Assembly (NCBI GenBank): GCA_000433915.1
Contig: HF993646.1
Location: 133,357 to 197,356 of the forward strand
Length of the DNA: 64,000 bases
From: Clostridium sp. CAG:793
GTDB taxonomy: Bacteria > Bacillota > Clostridia > TANB77 > CAG-508
Direction: 5' to 3'
Positions 12,398-51,793 of this stretch are shown in pieces. Positions within the stretch are counted from its first letter, which is position 1. Every line of letters begins with the position of its first letter. The position numbers and the translations under genes are program-made. Under the pieces are notes generated by a model that was not told where the DNA came from, searched no databases, and worked only from the letters and a program-made list of their open reading frames with translations.

Positions 12398-12413
12398 ATA
12401 AATTATATAATAG

Positions 12414-26512: not shown

Positions 26513-26532
26513 TATATAACTCCTAAGCTTAA

Positions 26533-27240: not shown

Positions 27241-27264
27241 TTCTAATTTCCTCTCTTTTAGTTA

Positions 27265-29891: not shown

Positions 29892-29984
29892 AGTTTATAT
29901 CCTTTCTTTTCTGTTCTAATCGATTACATTTTATTACAAATTTGTAATGAATACAAGACTTTATAATAAAAAACTTCTAATAGA

Positions 29985-30011
29985 AAAAGTAGCATTTTAA
30001 GTGCTACTTTT
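29985..30011. terminator. bidirectional hairpin terminator
   Basis: AAAAGTAGCA, a 7-nt loop, TGCTACTTTT. Confidence 0.65.
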
Positions 30012-30115
30012 ATCCTATTTTTCTTTTTTGAGCTATATTTGTAAGAACTATAAATATTATTGCAAATCCTATCATTATTACCATGTTTGTAATTATTGGT
30101 TTTAATGTTTCGAAA

Positions 30116-30412
30116 TTAAACATTAGTATAGTACAAAATTTCTTTTCCAAGTTTTTTAGCATATTCAATTTCCAGTTTTGTACTTTCTCCTATATAGTTA
30201 TTTACATTTACTACAAAAATAGCATCTGATAATTCTATCTTTTTAAAATGAGCTTCCCTTAGTTTTATTAATTGCTCTTTAGTCCTTACACTATTCTCAG
30301 ATGTTGGGTAGACTGGTGTAAGAACACAATCTCCTAATAAAGCCAAGTTTTCTGCTACTTCCATCATTTCTTTTTTAAATCTTAAACTCCCACATAAAGT
30401 TACTATTTTCAT
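30116..30412 (-). CDS. hypothetical 98-aa protein
   Basis: ORF with an AAAGGA SD-like element, 15 nt downstream of the hydrolase gene. No confident family call. Confidence 0.6.
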   Translation of the reverse strand: MKIVTLCGSLRFKKEMMEVAENLALLGDCVLTPVYPTSENSVRTKEQLIKLREAHFKKIELSDAIFVVNVNNYIGESTKLEIEYAKKLGKEILYYTNV

Positions 30413-30427
30413 AAAATTTACTGTCCT

Positions 30428-31417: not shown

Positions 31418-31500
31418 ATGAGTCTCCTTTTATAAATTTTTGTACATTGTATCATAAAATTTATATTATTGTTTAAATTTGACCCACTAGTATAAATACA

Positions 31501-32133
31501 TTATTTTATTAAAATTACACCTTTTATTTCTGAATTTAAAAGATTTATAAAATTTCTAGCATCTTGCTCTGTTCCAACTATACTTCCATAATGTATTGGA
31601 ACTGCTATTTTAGGCTTTATTTCATTTATTAGTTGTGCAGCTTCTTTAAAGTCCATTGTGTATGTTCCACCAACCGGAACAAAAGCTACATCACATTTTA
31701 CTTTTCTATTTTCATCAGTTATATCTGTATCTCCTGCAACATAATATTTAACATTATTTATTGTAATAATATACCCTAACCAGTTATTTTCCTTTGGGTG
31801 GAATTTTTTATTTATATTGTATGCAGGTATAGTATTAAAATTAATTCCTTGCGTTTCATATTCTTTATTTGGTTCTGCTACAATTATTGCATTTTTATTT
31901 ATTCCTTTTTTTAATAATTTTTTTAATAAATCTTTAGATATTACAATAGTTGTGTCTTCTTTTATAACTTTGTCTATATCTTCTTCTGAATAATGGTCGT
32001 AATGATCATGTGTTATAAAAATAATATCCGCATCATTATAGTTTTTGTTTATTTTAAATGGATCTATGTAGATTACTTTTTCTTTATTAATTCTTATACT
32101 ACTATGGCATAAAACTTCTATGTTTTCTAACAT
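31501..32133 (-). CDS. MBL-fold metallo-hydrolase
   Basis: ITHDHYDHY metal-binding motif. 210 aa with AAGGAGAG SD. Confidence 0.85.
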   Translation of the reverse strand: MLENIEVLCHSSIRINKEKVIYIDPFKINKNYNDADIIFITHDHYDHYSEEDIDKVIKEDTTIVISKDLLKKLLKKGINKNAIIVAEPNKEYETQGINFNTIPAYNINKKFHPKENNWLGYIITINNVKYYVAGDTDITDENRKVKCDVAFVPVGGTYTMDFKEAAQLINEIKPKIAVPIHYGSIVGTEQDARNFINLLNSEIKGVILIK

Positions 32134-32163
32134 TATAGCTCTCCTTTTATTTGCTCTATATAT

Positions 32164-32802
32164 TTATTTTTCTATTATGAATTTATTAACCGCGCTTATG
32201 AATATAACTAGATATGATATTGAAATAAGAAATCCACCTAAAACATCACTTGTGTAATGTACTCCTAAATAAATTCTACTTATTCCAATTGTACATATTA
32301 ATAGACTTAAAACTACAATAGAAATCCATTTGATATATTTATTTTTTACATATTTATAAATCAAATATATTAAATATCCGTAAAAAGCCATGCTTATCAT
32401 GGAATGTCCTGATGGAAAACTATATCCTGTTTCTTCAATTATTCTATATTCTGTTGGTCTTGGTCTTTGTAATATTCCTTTTAATAATTGATTTAGTATT
32501 GTTACTATAACTAAGTTTGAAAATATTGATACTCCTATTTTCTTATTTTTTATCACTACAAACAATACTATTGTTAGTACTATTAAAAATATTGCTCCTC
32601 CAAAGTTGGTGATAAACTTTGCTATTGGTGTTACAAAATCTGATATTAAAAATTTGGATATTATCTCATATCCTATTATATCACCATTCATTATTTCTTT
32701 GTGAAATACATCTTCTGCTAGAGCTAAAAATCCAATTAAGCAAATAAATAATATGATCCATTTTAAATTTTTTGTAATAAATTCTTTTATTTTGTCTTTC
32801 AT
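32164..32802 (-). CDS. PAP2-family phosphatase (membrane)
   Basis: KGILQRPRP, PSGH and SRIYLGVHYTSD signature motifs. Confidence 0.88.
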   Translation of the reverse strand: MKDKIKEFITKNLKWIILFICLIGFLALAEDVFHKEIMNGDIIGYEIISKFLISDFVTPIAKFITNFGGAIFLIVLTIVLFVVIKNKKIGVSIFSNLVIVTILNQLLKGILQRPRPTEYRIIEETGYSFPSGHSMISMAFYGYLIYLIYKYVKNKYIKWISIVVLSLLICTIGISRIYLGVHYTSDVLGGFLISISYLVIFISAVNKFIIEK

Positions 32803-32926
32803 TTTTACCTCTTATAATCTTTTTGTTATTAATATATTATCATAAATGCTTAACTTCTTTCAAGATTATTTAGCTATTAATTCATTCGTAAAAAAATCAG
32901 CTCCATTTTTTATTGGAGCCAACTTC

Positions 32927-33481
32927 TCATTCTATATTTATAGTCTTTATAATTTTAATTATCTCGTCATTATCATTTTTCTGTAGATTTCGATTAATTA
33001 TTGCTATATTATGATTCATCTCTGCGAATGAAATATCTATCCATTCATCACTATTTCCATAATATCCTACAACTGCTTGTTTTCCGTTGTTCAATGTTAT
33101 ATTTTTGGATGTTCTTTCACTTCCGCAAACGCCGAAATTCTCTTTATAAAAATATAATATCGCACATTGTTCTTCATTACTTTTGAATAACTTTAAAGCA
33201 TATATATAGTCATCATTTTCTGCTGCTTGAATCTCTTTATAATTCCAGCCATTCATAATATCCAGTTCTATTGTAGTATCTCCAACTGTTTTAGAATATT
33301 TTTGATAATTTTCTTCAGTTGCATTATCATTTTGATTTGTTTTTACTATTGCTGAATATTTTTTACCCCAAGTTCCGAATATTACTTCTTCTCCATTTTT
33401 CATTTTGTTGAAGTCAATTAAATACATTGTTACGACGATTCCTATCAGTATAATTACTAGTATAATTATTATTTTTTTCAT
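32927..33481 (-). CDS. hypothetical membrane-anchored extracytoplasmic protein, co-transcribed with the sigma factor
   Basis: Start moved to the ATG at 33481 (AGGTGG 5 nt upstream), 21 nt after the sigma gene stop. Confidence 0.7.
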   Translation of the reverse strand: MKKIIIILVIILIGIVVTMYLIDFNKMKNGEEVIFGTWGKKYSAIVKTNQNDNATEENYQKYSKTVGDTTIELDIMNGWNYKEIQAAENDDYIYALKLFKSNEEQCAILYFYKENFGVCGSERTSKNITLNNGKQAVVGYYGNSDEWIDISFAEMNHNIAIINRNLQKNDNDEIIKIIKTINIE

Positions 33482-33502
33482 ATATGCCACCTAACCTTTC
33501 TA

Positions 33503-34369
33503 CTATTTAGACAAATTTTTCTTAAGTTTTAGTTGGTATTTTGCAAAAATAATTGAAAAAATTATCGTTAGCATTAAAAATACTGTTGAAATTCCCATCA
33601 ATCCTATTGCAGGGTAATTTACTTCATTTTCATTAGTTTCTTCGATAATAGTTGTATTAATTTCTTCTTGTGAATTTTGTTGTGTATTCTCACTTTTTTC
33701 ATATTGCTGTTTTTGATTTTCATCAGCAGCAATTACAATATTCTCTATTACATTTTCTTCTTGAATTGGAGATATAATTTTTTTTGTGCTTTTTAAAGCA
33801 TATATGCTTGATATAAATGAAATGATAAACATAGTCAGATTGCTTAATAGCAATTTTAATGTATTTATTGCTTTATAATATCTCCATTTTACTGTTCCTG
33901 TTGGCATATTTAAAATTTTGCCTATTTCTTCAAATGAAAAGTTTGAAATTATTTTTAGTGAAATAATTTCTTTTTCATTATCATTTAGTTTACTAATTAA
34001 TCTGTTATAATTTTCTTGATCGATTATTTTACTTATTTCTTGATTATTGTCTTCAATTTCATATATATCGTCTAAATTAATATTATTCCTATTGCTTTTA
34101 AAATAATTTAATGTTTCGTTTTTAGTAACAGAATATATCCAACTAGTCTCATTTTTTGTAGGAAGATTTTCTTTATCCATTGAATATATTTTTTCAAATA
34201 CAAGTTGCATTACATCTTCTGCGTCGCTTTTATTTTTTAATATACTATACGCAATTTTATATATTAATTTACTGTATTTACTATAAAGTTCTTCAAATGC
34301 AGTATTGTTATTATTTTTTATTTTTGCAAATAAATTTTTTAACTCTTTTACATTTATTTTTTCTGACAT
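33503..34369 (-). CDS. ECF-type sigma-70 factor fused to a C-terminal membrane-spanning extension
   Basis: Start moved to 34369 (GAAAGGA 6 nt upstream). Region 2 reads DAEDVMQLVFEKIY and region 4 reads SFEEIGKILNMPTGTVKWRYYKAINTLK. Two hydrophobic segments are separated by an acidic/Gln-rich linker. Confidence 0.8.
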   Translation of the reverse strand: MSEKINVKELKNLFAKIKNNNNTAFEELYSKYSKLIYKIAYSILKNKSDAEDVMQLVFEKIYSMDKENLPTKNETSWIYSVTKNETLNYFKSNRNNINLDDIYEIEDNNQEISKIIDQENYNRLISKLNDNEKEIISLKIISNFSFEEIGKILNMPTGTVKWRYYKAINTLKLLLSNLTMFIISFISSIYALKSTKKIISPIQEENVIENIVIAADENQKQQYEKSENTQQNSQEEINTTIIEETNENEVNYPAIGLMGISTVFLMLTIIFSIIFAKYQLKLKKNLSK

Positions 34370-34425
34370 ATGTAGTCCTTTCATTTTTTATATTTATAGC
34401 ATATCTCAAAAATAGTATTTTACAT

Positions 34426-35622
34426 TTATAAATCGTTCTCATTTTTTATTATCATTCCATTTTTATCAATTCTAAAATTTCTATGAAACATCATATTTAT
34501 GGTAAGAAATTGATATATTGATGATGTCACTTGTCCTATCCCAGTACAATATGGTGTTTTTAATAGTGACATTATCATTCTTAAAATTCCAGCAAATAAT
34601 TTGTTAGATGTTACTTTTATTTCAAACTTTTCTAACTGCAAATAACATGTTTTTATACTATAAACTGGATACAATACAAAATTAAGCAATTCAAAGCTTA
34701 AATAAATAGCAGTAATTTTTAAATCCAAATTATAATATCTAAAAGAAACTACAAGCATTATGAAAACAGTTGTAAGTAAAATGCCTAATAATTTATATGC
34801 ATTTACTTTATGATCTTTATAATAAAATTGTTCTTTACTTATATCTATTTTTGCAACAGTTTTTATAGCCTCAAATGAATCCCATTGTGTATCCGTTATT
34901 AATGCCACAAAATTTAATGCCAGCATATATTTTTCTCCAAATTTTAATGCATTACTTAGTCCAAATAGAAATATTAGAAAAAATAGTATATTATTGCATA
35001 TTTCAACGGATTCATACTTACAGCAATTTAAAATATTAATTTGAAACTTAAACTTTTTATACTGTTTTATTATAACATAAACCGTATATATTAATATTGC
35101 TATTAGTGTAGTAACTACTATTTGTATCTTATCTTTTAATATTATTGAGGATAAGATCAATATCACAAAATTTAATAAATTGAATCTCATGCAATATTTA
35201 TTAGCCAATTTTTCTTTATTTTCAAAGTATAGTTTTTCTAATACAGAAGAAAATATCAAATGTATATATAATTGCAAAATTGAATATACAGCAAATTCTT
35301 TATATGTATCATAATCCATATTCATAAATTCTACATATTTTTTCACATTGATAGCAAATATTCCAAATACAACAAATCCTACTATTATTCCAAGTGTCAT
35401 TCCTGATAATACAGCATTTTCATTTTTATCTTTTTCTTTACTTATATTTGCTCCCGTTGCAAATATACTTTTCATCAATGCCCATATAAATTGTAGTGGA
35501 TATGTAAGTGTAAATACATTTACTAAATTTTTGTCTACAAGTAATCCTAACATAAACCATGACAATATTGGTATCAAAGAAAATATTGCGGAGTTAAAAC
35601 TGATTCTTAATAGTCTTTTCAT
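34426..35622 (-). CDS. polytopic membrane protein, MOP/Wzx-flippase-like
   Basis: 398 aa with about 12 TM segments. AAAGGTAG SD. The family call is weak. Confidence 0.7.
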   Translation of the reverse strand: MKRLLRISFNSAIFSLIPILSWFMLGLLVDKNLVNVFTLTYPLQFIWALMKSIFATGANISKEKDKNENAVLSGMTLGIIVGFVVFGIFAINVKKYVEFMNMDYDTYKEFAVYSILQLYIHLIFSSVLEKLYFENKEKLANKYCMRFNLLNFVILILSSIILKDKIQIVVTTLIAILIYTVYVIIKQYKKFKFQINILNCCKYESVEICNNILFFLIFLFGLSNALKFGEKYMLALNFVALITDTQWDSFEAIKTVAKIDISKEQFYYKDHKVNAYKLLGILLTTVFIMLVVSFRYYNLDLKITAIYLSFELLNFVLYPVYSIKTCYLQLEKFEIKVTSNKLFAGILRMIMSLLKTPYCTGIGQVTSSIYQFLTINMMFHRNFRIDKNGMIIKNENDL

Positions 35623-35663
35623 AATTTTCTACCTTTTAAAATTTCATTTTTTGTTCTATATGA

Positions 35664-36242
35664 CTAAATTTCTTTTTCTATTTCACACATAATATCATTT
35701 AAAACTTGTTCTCTATTCTCTGATGTATCATAATATTTAATCCTATATTCAGGGCATTCTTTTTTTAACATTTCGTTTGCAGAATACCAATCAATAGCAT
35801 GTTTTTTTAGATATTCTCTTGACAATCCAAATGTCCAATCCTTTTCAATATCGTGTTCAATACAAAGTTCTACCATTTCATCTACATTTAAATTACCAAG
35901 TCCAAGACATACAACAATAGTTTTTTTAAAATCAATCATTTCTTTAACTATTTTAGGATGTAATTGCCCACTTTCTAATATATAACCATAATGATTTTTA
36001 TCTTTTGAAATAGAAGAATTAAAAAACTCTAATAATGTTTTTTGAAAATATTCTCCGTGTTCAAACTCTTTTTGTTTATCAACATTGGTCCTGTAATATT
36101 TTTCTTTGTCTTCTGCTCTAATCATTGCCCATTTTAGTGAATCACTATGTATTAAGTTATAACTATTGTATTTATCTTTTAACATCTCGCTTAATGTAGT
36201 TTTTCCTGCTCTACCTATTCCCATTATTAAGATATTTTTCAT
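35664..36242 (-). CDS. P-loop NTPase / small-molecule kinase-like protein
   Basis: Start moved to 36242 (MKNILIMGIGRAGKTT). Its GGAG SD lies across the stop codon of the upstream MFS gene. Confidence 0.75.
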   Translation of the reverse strand: MKNILIMGIGRAGKTTLSEMLKDKYNSYNLIHSDSLKWAMIRAEDKEKYYRTNVDKQKEFEHGEYFQKTLLEFFNSSISKDKNHYGYILESGQLHPKIVKEMIDFKKTIVVCLGLGNLNVDEMVELCIEHDIEKDWTFGLSREYLKKHAIDWYSANEMLKKECPEYRIKYYDTSENREQVLNDIMCEIEKEI

Positions 36243-36254
36243 ATTCTTCATCTC

Positions 36255-37478
36255 CTAACTTTCTTGTATCATTCTATATAAATATAAACTAATAAATATT
36301 TCAATAACTGATAAAATTATTAAAATTATTATTACTACAATCATTGGATTATTAACCAAAATTACTGTAAAACTTAAACTCATAATTGCTCTTACAATTT
36401 TTCTTAATAAATCTAATGTAGTAAGTAATGATTGTTGTTGTTCTTTTTCTGCTTTTTTTAAGGCTAAATCTTGCATATATACCTTAAAAGGATCTCTTAT
36501 AAATAAAATTATAATATATCCCAAACTCATAATTAATATTTTCAAAATAATTGAGTATGTGATTAAATATCCTCCTACCATTAAGCAAAGAGATAACGAT
36601 AATAAGAATGGTAATAAAAATCCTACTTTGTCTTTGTATTTTTTATGTATTTTATTAAATGAAATATTTGAAATCACTCTCACTATTCTTGATATGCACA
36701 ACATTCCACCTATTATCAATGCAGTTTTTTCAACATTGAAATTTTTTAGCAATTCTTGTTGTATAAATAATTTTCCATTTGATTGTCCTGAATTGACGAT
36801 TGGATAAAAAAGTCCATAGGATATTATTATAGATAAAACAATTTTTGAATAATTTATTTTTTTCAGCTTGTCCTTATTTTCTTTATAAATTTTACTTTTA
36901 ATACAATTATTATTTGAATAATCAATCATATTGAAAGATAACACAAAACAAACAAAGCAAAACGTTATGCAGCCTATCATTGGTAAATAATTATTTATGT
37001 TAAACATAAAACTCGCAACAAACGATATTATCATTGTTGCTATTGCATATATTGTGTTAGCATTGGTTCTAAACTTTATATATTCATTTTCTCTATTTTG
37101 TAATTCCAAATTATTTTTTAATACAACATTTATCATATTTTGAAATGTAAATGCCACTTCATACAATATTTTTCCTATTACTACAATAATGTAATCTGTA
37201 CCTAAAGTTAATAAAATACTTGATATTAAAAGTAATAATGAGCCTAATCTTACAGACTTTGTATTTCCTATTTTCTTGATTATATTAAGTAAAGGTATCT
37301 GAAGTAGTATGCAAGTTATTAGAGAAATGGACGTTAGTGATACAATTTGTGAAGCATTAAAATTTTTAACAACAGTTAAAAACAAAGTATCTATTGCAGC
37401 CCAAAATAATAAATCTCCAGATAACCCTGCAAACCACGGAAATAATTTATTAAATTTTATTAAATTTTGTTCGTTCAT
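36255..37478 (-). CDS. MFS-type transporter
   Basis: About 12 TM segments. The ATG at 37478 is preferred to the track's TTG at 37490, but the start remains uncertain. Confidence 0.75.
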   Translation of the reverse strand: MNEQNLIKFNKLFPWFAGLSGDLLFWAAIDTLFLTVVKNFNASQIVSLTSISLITCILLQIPLLNIIKKIGNTKSVRLGSLLLLISSILLTLGTDYIIVVIGKILYEVAFTFQNMINVVLKNNLELQNRENEYIKFRTNANTIYAIATMIISFVASFMFNINNYLPMIGCITFCFVCFVLSFNMIDYSNNNCIKSKIYKENKDKLKKINYSKIVLSIIISYGLFYPIVNSGQSNGKLFIQQELLKNFNVEKTALIIGGMLCISRIVRVISNISFNKIHKKYKDKVGFLLPFLLSLSLCLMVGGYLITYSIILKILIMSLGYIIILFIRDPFKVYMQDLALKKAEKEQQQSLLTTLDLLRKIVRAIMSLSFTVILVNNPMIVVIIILIILSVIEIFISLYLYRMIQES

Positions 37479-37535
37479 ATCTATACACAATTCTTTCTAT
37501 TTCTAGTAAAATTCCTGTTTCTTCGCTTGTTAATT

Positions 37536-38060
37536 TCATAATTCATACTCCTTTATCTGACAATTTTTTAATCCTCTATTTAAAAATTTGCCATCAGCTA
37601 TCCCATTAAAATAACAGCTAAACGCTTTTGATACTCCACTATGAGCTACTATGAGCACATTTCTGTAGTCTTTTGTTTTTAGTTCATCTAAAAAGCTATA
37701 AACTCTATTAAAAAACACTTTAATATTTTCACTTGTACCATATTGAATAGTTGTATAGTAATTCCAATATTCTTCTCGATTTGTTACTTCAATAGGATGT
37801 CCATTTAAACTACCCGGATCTCGTTCTTTAAGTCTATAATCTATTACTATGTCTTTATTCTCAATATTAATAATATTCGCAGTATGTTTTGCTCTTAATA
37901 ATGGAGAAGATATAATAGTATCATATTCAATATTCTTTATTTTTTCTCTTAATTTTTTAGCTTGTTTCATTCCTGTTTCATTTAAATCTTCATCTTCTCT
38001 ATTATATAGTCCATATAAATTATGATTTACTTCTCCATGTCTTATTAGATATACTTTCAT
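37536..38060 (-). CDS. histidine phosphatase family protein (phosphoglycerate mutase-like)
   Basis: Start moved to 38060 (GGAGA 8 nt upstream). Contains the LIRHGE motif and a distal VAHSG motif. Confidence 0.85.
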   Translation of the reverse strand: MKVYLIRHGEVNHNLYGLYNREDEDLNETGMKQAKKLREKIKNIEYDTIISSPLLRAKHTANIINIENKDIVIDYRLKERDPGSLNGHPIEVTNREEYWNYYTTIQYGTSENIKVFFNRVYSFLDELKTKDYRNVLIVAHSGVSKAFSCYFNGIADGKFLNRGLKNCQIKEYEL

Positions 38061-38344
38061 AAAACTTTTCTCCAAATCTATATATATTTCATCTACATTT
38101 CTTTTGTTGTCTTGATGTAAAAGATAATCCCCTTTCCCATTTCTAATATTTTTTCAAATCTGGCACTTTTAAATTTTTGCAATATATAATCTTCTATATT
38201 ATTTGTTGCATTTTGGTCATTTTATCATAGAATATCCAAAAAAGAAAGCTTATACCTTTCTTTTTATATAATTTATTCTACTTAATTTTCTTTCTTGTTT
38301 TTACATAGTATCTATGCTATAATTACAAACAACCCTTTTTATAA

Positions 38345-38629
38345 GGATATTATTATAGGAGGTCTTCAGATAAACAAAATAGTGGCAGAAAAAAAGGAAA
38401 AATAAGTGCAGGGAGTTATATTGAATTAATAGGAAAAGATTATAAAAGTGTAGAAGCACACTTAAAAGCAGCGGGGTTTACTAATATTGAATTAATTGAG
38501 TTAAATGATTCGGGAATTATGTTCTGGAACAATGGAAAGGTAGAAACTATTTCCATTGGTGGAAATACATGCTTCGATACTACTAGTTATTTTAATAAGG
38601 ACATAAAAATTATTATATCATACCATTAA
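38345..38629 (+). pseudogene. start-less C-terminal gene fragment (...SAGSYIELIGKDYKSVEAHLKAAGFTNIELIELND...IIISYH)
   Basis: The frame is open from the stop at 38342, with no start codon before the domain-like sequence begins. Confidence 0.5.
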
Positions 38630-38683
38630 TAAAAGAGTCGTACCATCTATTCAGAAAATACAACTCTTTTATTGAGAATGATA

Positions 38684-39729
38684 TCACTCCCGACCTTCGA
38701 AGAACTTGCTCATCGCAAAGCATGCGATAGACTTTGCAAAGTTGCTGTCATCGAATTTTACCTCGCTGATGTTTAAAGCTTTAAAGTCAGAATAGACAAA
38801 ACTGGAAACATCTTCACTAGCTAGTGCTCCTCCGACGATTAAAACGGAGGGATGTACAAAATGCATAAAAGGAATAATTTTTCGCAATACGATGTCTTTC
38901 GCCTCAAAGAGGCTAATTGAATCTGTGTTATGCTCAAAGAGAGTACTGATAGCCTCTTTCTCACATGTGTCAAGAGTAATTAATCCCTTGGCGGGACTAA
39001 TTGTGCACTAATTGAATCTGTGCTATGCTCAAAGAGAGTACTGATAGCCTTTTTTTCACATGTGTCAAGAGTAATTAATCCCTTGGCGGGACTAATTGTG
39101 TCATTTGATAACAGATAAATGGCTTCATTGCCAACATACAGATACCACATGTCATCTAGAAAGTGATCTGATTTCAATATGTAGTAATTAGCTCGTACTG
39201 CCTCGAAAAGTGTACATTTGTCTAGAAACGAAGAACTGTTCAATGATAAATGTGAATTGGAGATAGTGACATCACCTGAGAGAGTTATTGTCCCCTGAAT
39301 AGAAATGCCGACATTTAAGATTTTGTCCTCTTGAGAGAAGAGATGAACTAAAAATGTAATTCTAGACAAAAGACTAAGGTTAGTGTTATTAATGATTGCA
39401 ATAAAACTATCATAGTTTTCCTTAGAGAGCACTTCACTTAATTCAACAGTTTCTTGGGCTAGATTCAGTGCAATGCAGTTAATGTTAATTCCATCAGAAT
39501 AAATGCCAATAAATAATGATGTGTCCGAAATATCAGGATTGATCTTATAAGAATCTCCTCCGTTAATTATTATTCCTTCGTTAAGCAAAGAGCCTACCTT
39601 TTTATTCACAGTAGGCCAACTTACGCCGAGTTTGATTGCGATAGAAAGCTTATTAACTGTTTTCGCACGTACTACTCCTGACATGAAAACATAATCTCCC
39701 TTTAATATTTCGAGTTGCCGTTCTGTCAT
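38684..39729 (-). pseudogene. ROK-like wHTH regulator gene disrupted by a 95-bp tandem duplication
   Basis: The track ORFs 38980..39729 and 38684..38887 join into one frame if one repeat copy is removed. N-terminal wHTH plus ROK-like GI..G / GISIQG / IVGGAL blocks. G/C-richer codons than the surroundings. Confidence 0.6.
38913..39102. repeat. 2 x 95-bp direct tandem duplication
   Basis: Copies at 38913..39007 and 39008..39102 are near-identical, differing at a handful of positions. CTAATTG microhomology occurs at the unit boundaries. Confidence 0.95.
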
Positions 39730-39799
39730 TATGTTACCATCCTTTCAAAAAATTGTTTGTTGCAAACTGAAAAAATTATACCACAAATTACAACTAAAG

Positions 39800-40685
39800 T
39801 CAATTGAAATGTAGATGCATACTGATGTTTTGGGTTTTCCGAGCATTGACAAGAGTATCTCCTATTGCAATAGTTCTTCTACTTTGTGGATTTTTACATT
39901 CTCCATAATACCATGTTCCAACAGAATGTCCGTTTGTTATGCATTTTCTTTTTGGAAGTCCAAATTGATTTCTTTTTATAACATTTTTGTTAATAGTTAA
40001 TGTTTTATTCTCAAAATCTACACAATCCCAAGTTAATCCATATACTTCAGATACTCTCATACCTGTATAATATGCTGTAAGAAATGAATAATATATTAAA
40101 TGATTTTTCTTAAATCTATTTAATATCCTTTCTAATTCTTCCTTTGTATATATATGTGCAGGATCACTATTTATTTTATCTATTCTAGGTAAATGCACAT
40201 GTTCGGCAGGATTTGAATTGATATAGTTCAAAGTATAACATGCATATTTGAGTGAACCTTTAATTACTTTTAATATACTATGCATAAATTTTTTTGAAAA
40301 AGCATATTCAACATATATGTTGTTAATAAACTCCTGTAATAATCTTGTATCTAATTGGCTTAATGTATAGAATCCAATTTTTGGTTTAACATGATTTTTT
40401 ATAATATTAAGATAAGATATCGTAGTCGAATATTTTAGATTGAAATTAGCATAAGTATCTATCCAATAGTCTAAAAAATCTGCATACGACATATTTTCTT
40501 TTAGTTGAACTTTCTTACCTCCATAATAAAAATCATTATAGGCTTTTGCGCCTTCTTTAAAAGCCTCTGCTTTTGTTGGATACCCTGACTTTGTTATCCA
40601 TTTTCTTGTTCCCTCAACTGTTGCAATTTCAAATCGGTATTCATATACCTTTCCACGTTTTCTTACGCTTACCATAGTTATCTCT
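39800..40685 (-). pseudogene. tyrosine integrase (phage/ICE type) lacking the C-terminal catalytic third
   Basis: Start at 40685 (GGAGAG SD; MVSVRKRGKVYEYRFE arm-binding N-terminus). Catalytic Arg (GMRVSEVYGLTW) and the beta-hairpin Lys region are present. No His-x-x-Arg or Tyr motif occurs before the stop. Confidence 0.65.
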
Positions 40686-40753
40686 CCTTCATTATAAAAC
40701 TTAATGAAACGGAAAAATGCCAGCATTTCGAATGCTGACATTTTATATAACTA

Positions 40754-40869
40754 TGTCCACAATAATTGTCCACGTAGATTTTTTATTGATTTTTATGGGG
40801 TTTCCTCGATTCTGTCCACATTATTTATGCTATGTGGACAAATCGTGGACAAATTGTCATCTGTGGACA
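40754..40869. promoter_or_regulatory. cluster of six TGTCCAC/GTGGACA motifs (three forward, then three inverted as GTGGACAAAT)
   Basis: Forward copies at 40754, 40767 and 40813. Inverted copies at 40834, 40845 and 40863. The cluster lies between the secA stop and the integrase start. Confidence 0.7.
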
Positions 40870-40924
40870 AATTTATCATTTTTTCTATTTTTAACAATTC
40901 CTTATTTTATAAGGGTTTGCGAGG

Positions 40925-43666
40925 TTATTTACCACAACAGTTTTTGTACTTTTTACCACTTCCACATGGACATGGATCGTTTCTTCCAACCTTTGGTTCT
41001 TCGTTAACTATTGTTTTGTTAACTCCGCCTTCTTTTGGAGATAATTTTCCGTCTACAAGTTCTATTGCTGCTTTTTCTTGCAATTTAGCATCAGTTATTT
41101 TAGCTGTCTCTTTTCTTGATTGTCCTTCATCTCTCTTTGTTGCGTGCATTAGAAGTTTTGCAACATCAAATTTGATATCAACTATCATTTCATCAAACAT
41201 GTTTGAACCTTCTTCTCTGTATACAACAATTGGATCTTTTTGACCATATGCACGAAGTCCAACTCCACGTTTTAATTCGTCCATGTTGTCTATGTGTTCC
41301 ATCCATTTTTGATCAACTACTTTAAGCATTACAACTCTTTCAAGTTCTCTTAATGTATCGCCAAATTGTTCGCATTTGTCTTCATAAATTGCTGTTGCTT
41401 TCTCTTGGATTTCTTTTAATATATCATTTGCTGTTGATTTTGCATTATCAAGACTGTCCAATTTTTCGATTCCATAGATATTCTCTACTTCTTGCATTAG
41501 TCCTTCTTCGTCTTTTGTATGTTCATTTACGTATGTTGGAACAATAATTTCAGCAACTGATTTTATCATTGACATTATGTCATCCTTTAGATTTTCGCCT
41601 TTTAATACTTCTCTTCTTTGAGCATATATAGTCTCTCTTTGTCTGTTCATAACATCATCATATTGAAGTACGTTCTTTCTTATGCTAAAGTTTCTTCCCT
41701 CAACTTTCTTTTGAGCTGATTCAACTGCTCTTGATAAAATCTTTACTGATATAGGTGTATCTTCATCTACTCCTAGTGTGTTGTAAGCTCTTGTTATTGC
41801 TCCACCACCAAAAATCTTCATCAAATCGTCTTCTAATGATATATAGAATCTTGATTCTCCTGGGTCTCCTTGACGTCCAGCACGTCCTCTTAACTGGTTG
41901 TCGATACGTCTTGATTCGTGTCTTTCTGTACCAATTATTTTTAATCCACCAGCATCAATTACCTTTTTCTTTTCGTCTTCAATTCCCTTGTCGTATTTCT
42001 TTACAAGATCTCTGAATTCTTTTCTTCTTGCAATTATTTTTTCATCGTCTGTCTCATTATATGCTGTTGCTTCTTCGATTTCTTCATAAGTGTATTTATT
42101 GCGCATTTCTTGTTTTGCAAGATATTCGCTATTTCCACCTAGCATGATATCAGTACCACGTCCTGCCATGTTAGTTGCAATTGTTACAGCTTTATATTTT
42201 CCAGCTTGTGCTATGATCTCAGCTTCTTTTTCATGGAATTTAGCATTTAATACTTGGTGTGGAATTTTTTCTTTATCAAGCATTTGGCTTAATTTTTCTG
42301 ATTTGTCTATTGAAACTGTACCAACTAATACTGGTTGACCTTTGCTATAACTTTCTTTTATGTCTTTTATTACAGCTCTGAATTTTCCATTTTCAGTTTT
42401 GTATATAACATCTGGATGATCTTTTCTGATCATTGGTTTGTTTGTTGGAATTTCTATTACATCTAATTTGTAGATTTCTTCAAATTCCTCTTCTTCAGTC
42501 ATTGCTGTACCAGTCATACCAGAAAGTTTTTCATACATTCTAAAGTAGTTCTGGAATGTGATGTTAGCTAATGTCTTTGATTCATCAGCAACTTTAACAT
42601 GCTCTTTAGCTTCGATTGCTTGATGTAATCCGTTGTTGTATCTTCTTCCATACATTATACGTCCAGTAAATTCATCTACTATTAATACTTCACCGTTTTT
42701 TACAATGTAGTCAACATCTTTTTTCATTATTCCATGAGCACGTAAAGCTTGGTTTACAGCATGAACTAATTCAGAGTTTTCAATATCGTTGAAATTCTCA
42801 AGTCCAAATTCTTCTTCTGCTTTTTCAATACCTTTTTGAGTAAGTGTTGCAGCCTTTGCTTTTAAGTCTACAATGTAATCATATTTTTCGTTATCTTCTT
42901 CTTGAGCTTCGTCTTTTACATCTTCTTCAATTATTGTTTTTGACTCTAGTTTGCTAACAAATCTATCAGCTTTCTTATAAATATCTGATGCTTGATTAGC
43001 TCTACCAGATATAATAAGTGGCGTTCTAGCTTCATCTATTAAAATACTATCAATTTCATCTACTATAGCATAATGTAAATCTCTTTGAACAAGTTGGTTT
43101 TCATAAACTACCATGTTATCTCTTAAGTAGTCAAATCCAAATTCATTGTTTGTTCCATATGTTATATCACAAGCATAAGCTTCTTTCTTTTCATTAGGTT
43201 TCATTCCACTGATTACTAATCCAACAGATAGTCCTAAGAAATTATATAATTTTCCCATCCATTCACTATCTCTTTTTGCTAAGTAATCATTTACTGTAAT
43301 TACATGAACTCCTTTTTCAGTTAAAGCATTTAGATATGCTGGTAGAGTTGCAACTAAAGTTTTACCTTCACCAGTTTTCATTTCTGCTATTCTTCCTTGG
43401 TGTAATATAATACCACCAATTAATTGAACATCAAAATGTCTCATTCCTAATACTCTTTTTGAAGCTTCTCTTACAACTGCGAATGCTTCTGGAAGTATGT
43501 CATCTAATGATTTGCCTTTTTCAAGTTGTTCTTTGAAATAAGGTGTTTTAGCTTTTAATTCTTCATCTGTTAATTTCTCAATTTCAGGTTCTAAAGAGTT
43601 GATTTTCTCTACAATTGGTCTAACTCTTTTAACTTCTTTTTCGCTATAAGATTTAAATAGTTTCAT
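40925..43666 (-). CDS. secA: preprotein translocase ATPase SecA
   Basis: 913 aa with DEAD-like motor motifs ([28 protein letters not shown]) and a C-terminal zinc finger [15 protein letters not shown]. Confidence 0.97.
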
Positions 43667-43820: not shown

Positions 43821-43851
43821 ATAAAAAATGAAGGAAATAATCTCCCTTCAT
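43821..43851 (-). terminator. intrinsic terminator of the 1044-aa/248-aa gene pair
   Basis: ATGAAGG, a 10-nt loop, CCTTCAT, then a U-run on the minus strand, just after the stop at 43857. Confidence 0.7.
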
Positions 43852-43856
43852 TTTAC

Positions 43857-44603
43857 CTATTTTAAAATATTTTTTAATGCCACTTCTGATTCAATATTTG
43901 AAAAAGGATTGCAATTAAAATATACTTTTTTATTTTCTAATTTATCTGATATGTCAATTGTGTTTAATTGATTTTTAGTTAATATTAAAGCAATATTTCC
44001 GCTATCGTATTTATTGGCTTCATTCACAAAATCGTCTATTGATTCGTTTTTATGAATATTTACTCCTATAAATTTTTGATTACAATAATCATATATTGTT
44101 TCTGTTAGAGAAGATAGTTCATCTGAATCTGTATATAAATCAATGTTTAATAATGATGCATATCTAACTTTTATTTTTAATTCATCTCTTAAGAAATAAT
44201 ATTTGCTTCTATCATCTATTACAACTATATCATCCGCTTCTGCATGAATAAAATCTCTTGGCGACATGTATTCAGTTAACTTCGGACCTTCGTCCTGGAA
44301 ATGCAAGTTAAATATTTTTACTATAGTTTCATTTAGGCATGGCATTGTATTTTGTATGTTTATATTTAATTTCACATCCTGAGATATTGCTTGCATACAT
44401 AATATTATTGTGATATATGGATTGCCATTTGTAACAGCTATAGCTTTCTTGCTTATAAAAGATGCGTGAAAACTTTTAAACTGTTCTAATATTTCTATAG
44501 CTTTGTTAAAATTAAATTTAAATTCACACTCATCTATTTTATTTGCCATATATAGATTTCTCTCATTATTTTTAAATGATTGTATTATATCATTAAGATT
44601 CAC
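43857..44603 (-). CDS. degenerate gamma-glutamyl phosphate reductase (ProA)-like protein, probable pseudoenzyme
   Basis: GTG start with GGAGG SD, 21 nt after the upstream stop. Blocks AIAVTNGNPYITIILCMQAI and GNIALILTKNQ..KKVYFNCNPF line up by eye with ProA [21 protein letters not shown] and HSDAILTRD..SAVYVNASTRF. The catalytic Cys region is absent. Confidence 0.6.
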   Translation of the reverse strand: MNLNDIIQSFKNNERNLYMANKIDECEFKFNFNKAIEILEQFKSFHASFISKKAIAVTNGNPYITIILCMQAISQDVKLNINIQNTMPCLNETIVKIFNLHFQDEGPKLTEYMSPRDFIHAEADDIVVIDDRSKYYFLRDELKIKVRYASLLNIDLYTDSDELSSLTETIYDYCNQKFIGVNIHKNESIDDFVNEANKYDSGNIALILTKNQLNTIDISDKLENKKVYFNCNPFSNIESEVALKNILK

Positions 44604-44624
44604 TTCTTTCCTCCTCTCTAAATA

Positions 44625-47600
44625 TTAGTCATCAATGTCAATATCATCGCTTTCTTGTTTTTTATCTTTTTTATCTTCAATATCAATTGTTGGTGTTTTT
44701 GTCTTTTTAGGTTTCTTAGTTATTAATTCAAGCTTTGTTTTTAATTTTTCTTTCCATCTATCTTCAGTAGTATGTAAGCATTTTGTAACGCCTGGTGTAT
44801 GTTCTCTATATAGTTGTGTTATTCCAGGCCAATCTACACTTAATGTTCCATTTCTGTTTATACTTAGGCAATAATTTTGTACTTTTTCGTAAATGTTATT
44901 TCCTTTTATATTGGTACTTTTAAATGCCTCATCTGTAATAATATATGTTGCATATTTTGTGTCTAAATTATTTCCACTTGCTGATGAACGATATAACTCT
45001 TCAACTACAACTGCATTATAATTTTTAAAATATACTATATATGAGCCTGATGCTTTCATGTGTTCATGATTTGGATCTATATATCTAAATGCTTTAAATT
45101 TACGGCCAAATGTAAATACTTCTTGCTCAGAACTTTTTTCTCTTTCCGCTTCTTTATGAGTACCATTTGTGCTATATCTTTTATAAGATGTTCTATTTCC
45201 TCTATTGCTTTCTCTTTCTTCTACTGCATATTCAAGATATTGTGATAAGAATTTTACTCTTTGTACTGATATAGGATCACTTTCTTTATATACACCTGCT
45301 AATAGGTTAATTTTCTGATCTTCATTTAGTCCATAATTATCTATTATTGATGCTAGTCTTAGATACTTCTTTCCTGTCATTGAATCATCTCTAAATAATT
45401 TTTCTTCATCTTCGGAACTTAACACTCCTGCTTTTATCATTTGAGCAATAAGAGCATTGTCTTTATCACTATCTAATACATCTATATTAATAAGTCTTCT
45501 TGAATACATATCTAGCAAATCAGATACTCGTGCATTTTTTCCACCAATTTGTTTGTATTCTCTCATTTGAGTTTCTTCACTTGGCATTCCCACGAAAGCT
45601 GTATATGCATCAACATATCTAGCATAATCATCTCTATATTTTCCGTTAGTAACAAGTGCTATTTGCTTTATCTTAGCTACAAGAGTTTTATCATCAAATA
45701 CTGATGCTAATTCATTTCCTTCTGCAAATGCTTTTAATGCATCTAACGTACATCTTCCTTTCATGTATAAATCTAGTATTTTCTTTTTATTAATAACTCC
45801 ATTTTCTTCGAATCTTATAATGTCTCCTGCACTTAGTTCTACATCTGAGTTATCTATTACGTATTTTGCTTCTGAATCTTGTAGTTCTCCAGAAAGTAAT
45901 AAATCTGCTGCAAGTTTACTATTTAACTCATATAATGTTTTTATTGTTATTAATCCATTTTTATGTATTGCTCCTAATATACGATCGTCAAATACTAAAT
46001 TATCAAACTCATCTAATAATTCATCGGTTTTGCTTAAATTATTTACGAAACCATATCTATCAAATAATGTTTTTTGAGCAATATACATTTGTGTTGACAT
46101 ATTTAAGTGTTCTTTTTCTTCTTCTGAAAGACTAGGTTTATTTTCAAGTACGTAAGTCACATAAAATGAATTTGCTAAATCTTTTGTTCTATATATTGAT
46201 TGTATCTTTTCTATGCCAAATAGATCTTCTAATAGGTCTATTGATTTTGTATATCTATATATTACTCTTTGCATCGTATCTTGTGAAATTAAGTTTTTCT
46301 TTTTAAGTACTTCTATATCACTTCTTGCTATTTCACTAAATTCACTATTTTGAGTAATTTCATTTAAAGCTTTTAAAACATAATAGTCAGCCATTGATTC
46401 ATTAAGTATTTGCCAGATTTCTTCTTGATTTAAAGTCTTTGAAAATAGTATCTTAGGATCTCTTAGTCTTTCATAAATATCAATAAAGCCTTCATCATTT
46501 GGTTTGTACTCTTCATCATCTATGCTATCTTCACTTCTTAATTGACTAGGTTCTAATCCATGTTTATTAATTATTTTCTCTAGCACGATGTATTTATTGT
46601 TTAGCTTAAACCATAAAGCATATTCTCTATATCTATCTAGGTCTTCTCCTTTTGACTGAACGAATGTTTTAAATTCATCAAATGTAATTTTGCCAGCCTG
46701 ATATACACTAAACATATATGCACATTTTGCATCTTCATCTATTTGTTCTGTTAGTTTTATTGCATTTTCTCTTTTTAATAACCTTATAAGCTCTGGATTG
46801 TATATTTGAATAGGATTTTTATTTATAAAGTTCTGTCCTAATTTGTCTAATGTATCTTCTACTCTTTTCTTAAAATCTTCCGAAATTGACTCTTTTTGTT
46901 CATCATCATAGCTTATTTTAAAATTTGTTTTTGATGCTGTCACACAATTAATTAATTTATGTAATAAGTCATTTACTTCTATTAACCCGTCAATTCCAAG
47001 CTCCATGATGTTATTATCAGTTGCATACACTAAAGTATTATATATACGTACAGCACATATAGCATATAAGTATGTTTCATTTACTTTGTTAGATATTCCT
47101 GGTGTCGTTATTAATTTTAGTGCATTTCTCGCAATATTTATCTTGTCAATTTCAAATCCTTCGCCTGTATTTGCTATTTTTTCTATCTGACCTCTATTAT
47201 ATCCTAAATCAGCTAGTCCATTATATGTTAAAGATGATATAGCTGTTTGAGCTAATTGTTCATCTTTAAATATTTGGTCATAATCGCTTATACTTAATGC
47301 ACTTACTAGTGTATTTAGGTTATCAAGTAATTTGTATTCTCTTTGAGGCATTTTTTTGCCATATACATAAACCTTTGACGAAACTGCTTCAATGATATAT
47401 TCATTTTTTCCATTATCAACGCTTCCTATATATATTGTTATATCATCATTTTCTTTTATGTATCTTTTGCATTTTTCAGTTAGCATTTGAACTAATTTTC
47501 TTGAATATTCATTTGGAATACCTGCTTCTTGTTTCTTTATCTCATATAATCCATAAAGCAAGAATTTTCTTATATCTATATCTTGAAAATTATATCCAAT

Positions 47601-47759
47601 AAATTCTGATGTAGATTTTCCTTTATAAAATAAATCCTCAGGATCTTTTCCATCCTTTAATAATAGACTTGCCATTATAGATGTAGGTGTATATGCAGCA
47701 ATTAATTCTGGATACTCTTTAAATATTCTTAATATATCTTTTTTCTCTTCGAAATTCAT
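44625..47759 (-). CDS. 1044-aa hypothetical cytoplasmic protein, no recognisable domain
   Basis: AAGGAG SD. No TM segment or signal peptide, no P-loop, and no nuclease or protease motif that I can see. A long helical region is followed by a charged linker, a C-terminal globular part of about 150 aa, and a Lys-rich then Asp-rich tail. Confidence 0.85.
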   Translation of the reverse strand: MNFEEKKDILRIFKEYPELIAAYTPTSIMASLLLKDGKDPEDLFYKGKSTSEFIGYNFQDIDIRKFLLYGLYEIKKQEAGIPNEYSRKLVQMLTEKCKRYIKENDDITIYIGSVDNGKNEYIIEAVSSKVYVYGKKMPQREYKLLDNLNTLVSALSISDYDQIFKDEQLAQTAISSLTYNGLADLGYNRGQIEKIANTGEGFEIDKINIARNALKLITTPGISNKVNETYLYAICAVRIYNTLVYATDNNIMELGIDGLIEVNDLLHKLINCVTASKTNFKISYDDEQKESISEDFKKRVEDTLDKLGQNFINKNPIQIYNPELIRLLKRENAIKLTEQIDEDAKCAYMFSVYQAGKITFDEFKTFVQSKGEDLDRYREYALWFKLNNKYIVLEKIINKHGLEPSQLRSEDSIDDEEYKPNDEGFIDIYERLRDPKILFSKTLNQEEIWQILNESMADYYVLKALNEITQNSEFSEIARSDIEVLKKKNLISQDTMQRVIYRYTKSIDLLEDLFGIEKIQSIYRTKDLANSFYVTYVLENKPSLSEEEKEHLNMSTQMYIAQKTLFDRYGFVNNLSKTDELLDEFDNLVFDDRILGAIHKNGLITIKTLYELNSKLAADLLLSGELQDSEAKYVIDNSDVELSAGDIIRFEENGVINKKKILDLYMKGRCTLDALKAFAEGNELASVFDDKTLVAKIKQIALVTNGKYRDDYARYVDAYTAFVGMPSEETQMREYKQIGGKNARVSDLLDMYSRRLINIDVLDSDKDNALIAQMIKAGVLSSEDEEKLFRDDSMTGKKYLRLASIIDNYGLNEDQKINLLAGVYKESDPISVQRVKFLSQYLEYAVEERESNRGNRTSYKRYSTNGTHKEAEREKSSEQEVFTFGRKFKAFRYIDPNHEHMKASGSYIVYFKNYNAVVVEELYRSSASGNNLDTKYATYIITDEAFKSTNIKGNNIYEKVQNYCLSINRNGTLSVDWPGITQLYREHTPGVTKCLHTTEDRWKEKLKTKLELITKKPKKTKTPTIDIEDKKDKKQESDDIDIDD

Positions 47760-47919
47760 ATAGTCTCCTTATATTTTTATTTAACTGTGTACTCTTAATT
47801 ATACTACATAATTATGTTAATTTCAAGTGCTTTGTTTTCTTTTTTCTACCATTTTGTGATATTGTACGAGCTGTATTAATACATTTTATTAATGTTATAG
47901 TGAAATGGAGATTGCTTGT

Positions 47920-48429
47920 ATGTTTATCTATAATTTTAAATTTGATAAAAGAAAATTTTCAAAGTTCATAATCGTTGTACTGACTCTTATTGCAGTTTCT
48001 CTTATAATTGCATCAGCATGTACTATTTATCAGGCTTCTGTTTCTGTAAAAAATGATAGCCTAGCTTCTATCAGTATATCAAATGATAATTTTACTGAAT
48101 TTTTAAAAGACTGTCATGAAAACATTGATTCTTATGTTGGATATAATGTTGAATTATCTGGATATGTTTATAGAATGAATGATTTTAATGATAGTCAATT
48201 TGTACTTGCTAGAACTATGATATTAGATTCATCTAATAATGCTGTTGTTGTCGGAATCCTTTCTGAATGTAATAATGCAGCAAACTTTAAAGATAATGAT
48301 TGGGTTAGTATTCATGGAGTTATTACTAAAGGATTTTATCATGGTGATATCCCAGTTGTTAAAGTAACTGATGTTCGTAAATGTGATAGGCCTGATGATG
48401 AATATGTATATCCACCAGGTATGGATTAA
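47920..48429 (+). CDS. TIGR03943/DUF1980-like membrane-anchored protein (degenerate)
   Basis: Start moved to 47920 (GGAGA 8 nt upstream). N-terminal TM and a C-terminal domain ending DDEYVYPP, as in that family. The Cys-Cys motif is not present. Confidence 0.6.
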   Translation: MFIYNFKFDKRKFSKFIIVVLTLIAVSLIIASACTIYQASVSVKNDSLASISISNDNFTEFLKDCHENIDSYVGYNVELSGYVYRMNDFNDSQFVLARTMILDSSNNAVVVGILSECNNAANFKDNDWVSIHGVITKGFYHGDIPVVKVTDVRKCDRPDDEYVYPPGMD

Positions 48430-51020: not shown

Positions 51021-51749
51021 TTATGCTTCTTCTGGATATGGCATATCAAAATAACTGTTTCTATTTTGCACCCCGCCTATTCTTGGCATTGGTCCATACA
51101 TATGTGGACGTGGTTGTGGTGGTGGTGGAAGCGGCATTGGCCTATTAGGTGACATTGGTGGCATTGGTGGTGGTAGAATTGGTCTATTTCCATATAGTTT
51201 ATTTAATATCATTATTTTTATTAAATCTCTTAATAATGGGTTAGAGCATCCTGGACATGGAGCTGCTACTTCTACTGCTTTTTCTTCTTTTTTATTTATT
51301 GTATTAGCTTGCGTTATATTGCTTGATACTTGTTTACTTTGATATTGTGGCTGCATATTGTTTTTATTATTCAAATTTTGTGCATTGTTTGAATTAGATG
51401 TATATAATTTATGTGCATTTAGTCCTGAATTTTGATTGTCCTTTAATAAATTGTTTTCTGAGCTTTTTGTCTTTGATGGTTCTTCTACTTCTAAAGCATT
51501 ATAAATGTCTAATGTCATTTTTTCTAAAGTATCATTGTCTAAGTTATTCGTATTATACCTTTCTAATGTTGTATCTATCATTGGTAATATTACTATATAT
51601 ATGTCTGGATATAATTTTCGTATATTCGAATCATTTTCAAATTGCATTTGAGGATATATGTAGCTATTATTTATTGAATTCCAGCTTGACATTTGTGCCT
51701 GTTGATAATCATTTCCTAGTACATTTCTCATATAGTCTTCATAAATCAT
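51021..51749 (-). CDS. hypothetical protein with an Asn/Gln-rich centre and a Pro-rich C-terminus
   Basis: Start moved to 51749 (GGAGG 7 nt upstream). The C-terminus reads PILPPPMPPMSPNRPMPLPPPPQPRP. Confidence 0.65.
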   Translation of the reverse strand: MIYEDYMRNVLGNDYQQAQMSSWNSINNSYIYPQMQFENDSNIRKLYPDIYIVILPMIDTTLERYNTNNLDNDTLEKMTLDIYNALEVEEPSKTKSSENNLLKDNQNSGLNAHKLYTSNSNNAQNLNNKNNMQPQYQSKQVSSNITQANTINKKEEKAVEVAAPCPGCSNPLLRDLIKIMILNKLYGNRPILPPPMPPMSPNRPMPLPPPPQPRPHMYGPMPRIGGVQNRNSYFDMPYPEEA

Positions 51750-51793
51750 AAAAATACCTCCTGGCATACAATATGCCAGAAGATACAATTATG

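Follow-up and report, generated by a model that had tools for sequence, protein, structure and literature searches.

A candidate module of a shortened ProA-like protein and a helical-repeat partner in uncultured gut Clostridia

We analyzed a 64,000-nt stretch of Clostridium sp. CAG:793 (contig HF993646.1 of assembly GCA_000433915.1, positions 133,357 to 197,356 of the forward strand), hereafter the window, in which two adjacent minus-strand genes upstream of secA encode proteins of 1044 and 248 amino acids, referred to below as the large and the small protein. The explanation that we favor, with middling confidence, is a vertically inherited chromosomal two-gene module in which a non-redox ligand-binding or adaptor subunit derived from gamma-glutamyl phosphate reductase (ProA) is accompanied by an accessory solenoid scaffold. 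The large protein belongs to no described family and the pair matches no described system, and the observations support an aldehyde dehydrogenase (ALDH)-fold pseudoenzyme or neo-enzyme joined to a helical-repeat scaffold, which is not demonstrably a new type of machine. Both products are present in public records under the label 'unknown [Clostridium sp. CAG:793]', the large protein being identical to CCZ00180.1 and the small one to CCZ00179.1. In a comparison with a strain whose large protein is 94% identical (locus L020), the large gene had a dN/dS ratio of 0.13 and the small gene one of 0.05, against 0.03 to 0.10 for six neighboring genes, which indicates that both genes are real and under purifying selection. 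The two genes are as follows.

44625 to 47759, minus strand: large gene, open reading frame (ORF) of 1044 aa with an ATG start; product of 120.7 kDa, pI 5.2, cytoplasmic
43857 to 44603, minus strand: small gene, ORF of 248 aa with a GTG start; product of pI 5.0

The AlphaFold2 model of the small protein, built on the family alignment (predicted local distance difference test score, pLDDT, 83.5; predicted template modeling score, pTM, 0.72), comprises two Rossmann-like alpha/beta halves. When this model was searched against the PDB with Foldseek, the top matches were gamma-glutamyl phosphate reductases (GPRs), followed by generic aldehyde dehydrogenases; the former included 4ghk (B. thailandensis), 8zoo (E. 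coli), the GPR domains of P5CS in 7f5u and 2h5g, 1vlu (yeast), and 4jbe, with E values of about 1e-5, a probability of 1.00, query template modeling scores of 0.5 to 0.58, and identities of 10% to 12%. The small protein hence carries the ALDH/GPR fold, only in part because large ProA segments are absent. At the sequence level, neither Pfam nor NCBIfam returned a ProA or ALDH model above threshold: the Aldedh model (PF00171) reached 13.6 bits where 23 are required and covered residues 183 to 238 only, and NCBIfam yielded only SSADH at E 0.13. PDB sequence searches with the protein and with the family profile likewise did not find ProA. When the small family was aligned by hhalign, a single ProA, that of E. 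coli, gave an E value of 0.13 and a five-sequence ProA profile one of 0.007 to 0.008, with residues 1-245 collinear to ProA 26-390 and anchored on blocks that the first-pass annotation, made by a reader of the sequence, had lined up by eye. The resemblance to ProA proposed in that annotation is thus borne out by the fold search, whereas the Aldedh score and an hhalign E of about 0.007 fall short of establishing it from sequence.

The collinearity is seen in the succession of short blocks, which follow one another in the same secondary-structure order in both proteins (ProA/small): IYE(A/S)RPNVT/VTNGNPYIT, IYVD/LYTD, LDDAI..H/IDDFV..N, AILT/LILT, VYVNASTRF/VYFNCNPF, and GAEV/ESEV. Twelve positions are strictly invariant in the small family (D24, G60, N61, P62, Y63, N91, L138, Y157, I207, L208, N230, and N232), and almost all of them fall within blocks that are conserved in ProA as well. 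The ProA motifs themselves, given in E. coli numbering, have nonetheless been replaced, as the first-pass annotation had recognized for the RPN and PRGG types. R122-P-N124 corresponds to the invariant N61-P62-Y63, so that Asn stands in for Arg and Tyr for the oxyanion Asn, with only the Pro unchanged; LRGG(142) is N-I-Q-N and PRGG(199) is I-D-D-(R/K), leaving the small protein with neither the RPN loop nor the glycine-rich NADPH-binding loops. Toward the C-terminus, VYVN367ASTRF is matched by VYFN230-C-N232-P-F and GAE383V by E238-S-E-V. The residues in question are encoded at the following positions, together with a cysteine considered below.

44415 to 44426, minus strand: codons of the invariant G60-N61-P62-Y63, counterpart of the ProA RPN loop (ProA alignment and family conservation)
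43902 to 43916, minus strand: codons of N230-C-N232-P-F, counterpart of ProA NASTRF (N230 and N232 invariant)
44082 to 44084, minus strand: codon of C174 in a Y-C motif, which may correspond to the catalytic Cys of ProA (kept in 22 of 23 members)

With 248 residues against about 415, the small protein is some 170 residues shorter than ProA and is cut to about 60% of its length. The missing segments are the N-terminal 25 to 50 residues or so, a catalytic-domain stretch of about 55 to 65 residues that follows the Cys loop, and about 30 residues at the C-terminus (HARGP); no member of the family is a full-length ProA with a complete catalytic domain and HARGP segment, all being 246 to 264 aa long with internal deletions. 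ProA, moreover, goes with proB, whereas the small protein is paired with a solenoid protein of about 1000 aa, and no amino-acid-kinase gene was present among the called neighbors in the fetched loci. The most fitting description of the small protein is that of a strongly reduced ALDH-fold protein of ProA origin, which represents a new and minimal branch of the superfamily. Given the replacement of the RPN and PRGG-type motifs, ProA chemistry, namely NADPH-dependent reduction, is implausible. Non-catalytic members of the superfamily are known, human ALDH16A1 being one such pseudoenzyme. Like these, which are thought to work through binding partners, the small protein has an ALDH fold without the residues for NAD(P) catalysis; it differs from them in being bacterial, drastically shortened, ProA-derived, and accompanied by an operon partner, where pseudoenzymes such as ALDH16A1 are eukaryotic and full-length or enlarged. 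PMC10650815 and PMC10211241 deal with ALDH pseudoenzymes.

Loss of ProA chemistry does not by itself make the protein catalytically dead, and here the first-pass annotation, which had reported the catalytic-Cys segment as lacking, went further than the alignments allow. ALDHs can hydrolyze esters through their Cys without NAD. The small protein could still be an enzyme that evolved from ProA and works through a Cys and without a cofactor, whether as a (thio)esterase, as an acyl-phosphate hydrolase, or as a transferase; its substrate, a glutamyl-type or different acyl compound, would be presented or regulated by the large protein. We regard this as unlikely, while noting that several conserved residues speak for it. 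In a register that follows the order of secondary-structure elements and requires one deletion, LYTD aligns with the IYVD strand of ProA, and the T-C-N loop, which in T. maritima ProA contains the catalytic Cys255 (PMC4271523; Cys253 in E. coli), falls opposite Y-C174-(N/S). The HH alignment pairs E238 with E. coli Glu383, a residue lying within 9 Å of the catalytic Cys (PMC4271523), and the invariant GNPY loop stands in place of the RPN active-site loop. On the other hand, the HH register, itself a low-confidence path, has the invariant L138 where ProA has its Cys. The most divergent small protein (L034, gene at 825-1613 of that locus) has Ala at the C174 position and a Cys three residues, or one helical turn, earlier, which could be a shifted functional Cys or could mean that the Cys is non-essential. 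The change of the oxyanion Asn to an invariant Tyr and the loss of 55 to 65 or so catalytic-domain residues and of the C-terminal HARGP segment further count against retained catalysis.

The large protein was modeled with lower global confidence (pLDDT 79.9; pTM 0.49) and divides into four parts, in agreement with the plan of helical body, linker, compact domain, and Lys/Asp tail that had been drawn from the sequence by eye.

45237 to 47759, minus strand: residues 1-841, alpha-helical solenoid of about 45 helices plus one beta-hairpin at 108-127 (AlphaFold2 model)
45360 to 46817, minus strand: residues about 315-800 within the solenoid, at least five helix-turn-helix hairpin repeats (hhalign of sub-alignments)
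45111 to 45230, minus strand: residues 844-883, disordered Ser/Arg/Lys/Glu-rich linker (pLDDT below 50)
44733 to 45110, minus strand: residues 884-1009, compact alpha/beta C-terminal domain (AlphaFold2 model and family conservation)
44628 to 44720, minus strand: residues 1014-1044, disordered Lys-rich then Asp-rich tail (AlphaFold2 model; not conserved in the family)

The repeats were recognized by matching segments of the large protein to one another, those at about 315-380, 475-515, 590-640, 640-680, and 743-795 giving mutual hhalign probabilities of up to 97% and an E value of 9e-11. Their consensus reads h-x3-G-h-I-(S/T)-x3-h-x2-L-h, and examples of the copies are VYQAGKITFDEFKTFV, IHKNGLITIKTLYEL, FEENGVINKKKILDLY, and MIKAGVLSSEDEEKLF. 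Isolated units found no family in Pfam, and across 16 members of the large family Pfam produced no recurring match, the single SHOCT-like hit (E 0.018) being confined to one member; a SHOCT-like or EF-hand identity of the hairpin is therefore not supported by Pfam. No curated repeat hidden Markov model (HMM) was reached in comparisons with the named helical-repeat families HEAT, ARM, and TPR. In the C-terminal domain E920 and H996 are invariant and A937-T938-Y939 and W1002 nearly so, and the domain profile matched nothing in the PDB or Pfam. Two candidate relatives of this domain were set aside: an unnamed Tetrahymena protein, which was the best match but at E 0.007 was judged to be due to chance, and the notion that the domain is the piece missing from the small protein or is ProB-like, for which hhalign E values exceeded 0.3. 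The domain is related neither to ProA or ProB nor to the small protein.

Neither a transmembrane segment (19-residue hydropathy peaks at 1.0) nor a Walker A motif is present in the large protein, as the first-pass annotation had stated, and it has no HExxH motif; no recognizable nuclease, ATPase, or NTPase motif was seen either. Scans against Pfam, NCBIfam, PADLOC, and PHROGs gave nothing above threshold, PDB sequence searches gave no match, and Foldseek searches of the model against the PDB and BFVD returned generic alpha-solenoids only (template modeling scores of about 0.1, E above 1e-3). The absence of a recognizable family was thus upheld by sequence, profile, and structure searches alike. 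With these alpha-solenoids (FANCI, karyopherins, HEAT subunits of condensin, and ankyrin proteins), its sole fold matches, the large protein shares an all-helical body, and it differs from HEAT-, ARM-, or TPR-like scaffolds in its own hairpin repeat and its unique C-terminal alpha/beta domain.

Local HMMs run on all fetched loci, which are numbered with the prefix L, detected 16 distinct large genes, namely that of the window species and those of L001, L007, L011, L013, L015, L018, L022, L023, L024, L026, L028, L030, L032, L033, and L034. Every one of the 16 lies directly beside a gene of the small family; the very divergent small homologs among these neighbors were confirmed either by hhalign (E 1e-23 to 4e-41) or by hmmsearch (E 1e-43 to 1e-106). 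The order is large-small in 14 of the 16 and small-large in the remaining two (L022 and L034), and the gaps within the pair measure 13 to 25 nt, that of the inverted pair in L034 being 13 nt. In 11 cases secA follows the pair, the wider surroundings of which include uvrB, uvrA, cmk, murD, and transporter genes. Unrelated neighbors were found in L022, L032, and L034 (PDDEXK_2 and PBP; an HD-like protein; an activase-like protein). Since the adjacency has outlived both inversion and relocation, the two genes appear to be functionally linked, and the observations support their being a functional pair.

The pairing is not obligate. Five lineages (L004, L008, L009, L012, and L016) carry the small gene alone. 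In L008, L012, and L016 the backbone of murD ... MFS, AI-2E, DUF1980_C(-), small gene, and secA is intact and the large gene is cleanly absent, and in L004 its place is taken by an unrelated pilin-like protein of 1018 aa. This protein (L004 4803-7859, plus strand) carries at its N-terminus a hydrophobic helix like that of prepilins, matches Big_3_2 and CHB_HEX_C faintly, and is encoded beside a helix-turn-helix regulator gene; in uncultured gut Clostridia (TANB77), proteins of the pilin-like kind have been tied to immunotherapy response (PMC11680825). In the tree of the small protein every deep lineage has the large gene. The genomes without it fall inside the subclade of the window itself, a pattern that implies that it was lost recently on three or more occasions. 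No loss of conservation was seen in the small protein of these genomes. The large gene is dispensable and the small gene is not.

In the window, the two genes read as a bicistronic unit expressed from one transcript that ends before secA, as judged from the ORF spacing, the Shine-Dalgarno sequences, a promoter-like site, and a terminator. This agrees with the earlier description of a minus-strand unit with its own upstream region, a strong terminator, good Shine-Dalgarno sequences, and 21 nt between the large-gene stop and the small-gene start, all of which were located. The promoter-like site is to be taken as a consensus match only, because the number of such sites in the region was not above that in shuffled sequences. 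The terminator-like hairpin starts 3 nt past the small-gene stop and is the sole one within 43.4 to 48.2 kb. An Rfam scan of the window detected no riboswitch or leader near the unit, its only match being RNase P RNA of bacterial class A at 12051-12401 on the plus strand (279 bits). The signals and flanking genes are listed below.

47798 to 47826, minus strand: promoter-like site TTGAAA-17-TATAAT, 5' of the large gene; 11 of 12 consensus matches, the best in the region
47765 to 47770, minus strand: AAGGAG, Shine-Dalgarno sequence of the large gene (read from the sequence)
44610 to 44615, minus strand: AGGAGG, Shine-Dalgarno sequence of the small gene, inside the 21-nt gap (read from the sequence)
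43825 to 43854, minus strand: intrinsic-terminator-like hairpin of 13 pairs plus a T-run, between the small gene and secA (hairpin search)
40925 to 43666, minus strand: secA, downstream of the small gene
47905 to 48429, plus strand: DUF1980_C gene, divergent from the large gene and sharing with it a 145-nt intergenic region that holds the promoter-like site

The product of the divergent DUF1980_C gene is short and has an N-terminal transmembrane helix, and such a gene is found at the same position in L001, L023, L028, and L033.

Both families are restricted to one clade of uncultured gut Clostridia and are inherited vertically on the chromosome. The small family comprised 36 clusters, or 47 with a broadened profile, of which none is named and none has a Pfam domain. 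An exhaustive HMMER scan of 1.84 billion representatives identified 20 proteins of the large family at E ≤1e-3 and nothing beyond it; full-length matches span about 950 to 1100 aa, and the 20 include five short fragments and one protein of 768 aa. A word-indexed search with the large protein retrieved the 94% relative only. The species-level genomes with the small family all come from the gut of rabbit and mouse and are metagenome-assembled genomes under the title 'uncultured Clostridia bacterium'. Further loci were drawn from ENA, Logan, and NCBI metagenome assemblies, and a metagenome pattern scan added one extra locus only, from the same species. Across the clade, the mean pairwise distance of the large protein was 0.73, while the small protein reached 0.51 and SecA 0.15; at short range the large protein is nevertheless under purifying selection.

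Taking these observations together, we propose that the small protein would be a ProA descendant within the ALDH superfamily that has shed some 170 residues along with the NADPH-binding and oxyanion motifs and may have kept the loops lining the former active-site cleft (GNPY, LYT, N-x-NPF, and E238). It would serve as the conserved core component, a non-redox adaptor or a subunit that presumably binds a ligand. The large protein would be an accessory partner whose repeat-built alpha-solenoid offers a docking platform, and its alpha/beta domain, held on a flexible linker and bearing the invariant Glu and His, may be catalytic or may bind. Translated from one transcript, the two probably form a cytoplasmic complex. 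Four observations weigh against this proposal. The small-ProA link is statistically weak at the sequence level and draws on the fold search and the collinearity of motifs; C174 and E238 are largely conserved, so the small protein may be an enzyme and not a pseudoenzyme; its full conservation where the large gene has been lost means that its function is independent of the large protein; and a mirror-tree comparison of the two proteins controlling for SecA gave a partial r of -0.09, that is, no co-evolution beyond phylogeny.

Besides the enzyme alternative discussed above, the position of the pair invites an explanation in cell-envelope biogenesis or export, in which the module would be a regulator or scaffold sensing a peptidoglycan precursor or a glutamate-derived metabolite, or else an accessory factor of SecA. 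It was initially held that neither gene is an expected neighbor of secA and that the pair occupies a variable slot, a view overturned for this clade by the relatives, in nearly all of which the small gene is immediately upstream of secA. In the subgroup of L024, L026, and L030 the genes form a string of murD, 15 nt, large gene, 25 nt, small gene, about 100 nt, and secA, with no terminator-like site ahead of secA, which has its own promoter-like site. MurD is the D-Glu-adding ligase, and ProA ancestry would imply a pocket that fits a glutamyl compound. However, the window has a terminator between the small gene and secA and four genes between murD and the large gene, the pair lies away from both murD and secA in L022, L032, and L034, neither protein has a membrane-targeting feature, and little can be concluded about function from synteny inside a single narrow clade. 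A link to envelope biogenesis through murD or to secretion through secA is something that synteny, and synteny only, suggests, and we judge this explanation distinctly unlikely. A more specific variant, which we consider very unlikely, would be a cytoplasmic machine not recognized before in uncultured gut Clostridia, in which the ProA-derived domain, deprived of its redox chemistry, senses or handles a metabolite of the glutamyl or acyl-phosphate type and works with the Glu/His-domain solenoid so as to tune the synthesis or export of cell-wall precursors; it would explain the linkage of murD, the large and small genes, and secA.

It is highly improbable that the two genes are functionally unrelated and adjacent through inherited synteny only. 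The confinement of all carriers to one narrow clade, the small gene functioning without the large one in five lineages, and the lack of a mirror-tree signal speak for this explanation, but the adjacency persists through inversion of the order in L022 and L034 and a full change of flanks in L022, L032, and L034, the gaps stay within 13 to 25 nt, and no large gene was seen without a neighboring small gene.

The first-pass annotation had also likened the layout to an uncharacterised defense or stress module in a variable slot. PADLOC produced no match for the window proteins or for the 16 + 16 aligned family members, and PHROGs gave none for the large protein and, for the small one, only weak matches to families of unknown function (best E 0.0026). 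Relatives of the small family were absent from IMG/VR viral contigs, those of the large protein from 50,697 phage records, and those of both from 72,556 plasmids, on which grounds a mobile-element origin was rejected. The synteny is that of a core genome, with the same position among housekeeping genes kept clade-wide and no patchy spread over distant taxa, defense island, or mobile link. An anti-phage or stress role is therefore scarcely credible, even though the large protein evolves very fast, was lost at least three times and swapped for the pilin-like gene in L004, and has a pseudoenzyme-like partner as a large unknown protein might in such a system, for its dN/dS of 0.13 is not diversifying, no recognizable nuclease, ATPase, or NTPase motifs were seen, and the small gene is universally retained.

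The truly variable part of this neighborhood is on the other side of secA. There, secA and prfB (25403-26512, minus strand) are about 14 kb apart in the window (26500-40900) and adjacent in L001. The intervening block, which is probably an integrated island, starts beside secA with an integrase-like ORF at 39800-40741 on the minus strand (Phage_int_SAM_3 and a partial catalytic domain) and contains genes for a 249-aa unknown protein and for His_Phos, MFS, ECF-like sigma factor, PAP2, MBL-fold, and alpha/beta-hydrolase proteins. Its G+C content falls to 23% to 24% at 32 to 38 kb, compared with about 28% for the window, and another sample of this species (L035) matches its secA-proximal end (38767-40900) at 97% to 99% identity. 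Elsewhere in the window, a 255-aa ORF at 51021-51788 on the minus strand directly follows murD and encodes a protein without a Pfam match whose C-terminus is rich in proline (PPPMPPMSPNRPMPLPPPPQPRPHMYGPMP); relatives L020, L008, and L016 have a gene of 241 to 318 aa in its place. Between about 18000 and 22000 the GC skew changes sign, being positive before and negative after a point near 20 kb, exactly where gene orientation also changes from plus to minus, which fits converging replication of a terminus-like kind or a major boundary of operon orientation.

The analysis defines two protein families that have been publicly labeled 'unknown' and have neither a Pfam nor an NCBIfam model, and it corrects the tempting label of a defense system. 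Its practical value will stay modest for as long as no function has been assigned, and the pair is one of very many clade-specific gene pairs of this sort. Residues suitable for testing are nevertheless at hand, namely the GNPY loop, C174, and E238 in the small protein and E920 and H996 in the large one. The carriers are uncultured Clostridia of the human, mouse, and rabbit gut with low-GC genomes, of whose lineage-specific functions very few are understood. In these bacteria, a relative of ProA has been shortened, fixed beside secA, and coupled with a dedicated scaffold protein, offering an example of enzyme repurposing in which a reductase of proline biosynthesis lost its cofactor-binding motifs on the way to a non-enzyme or a new enzyme.

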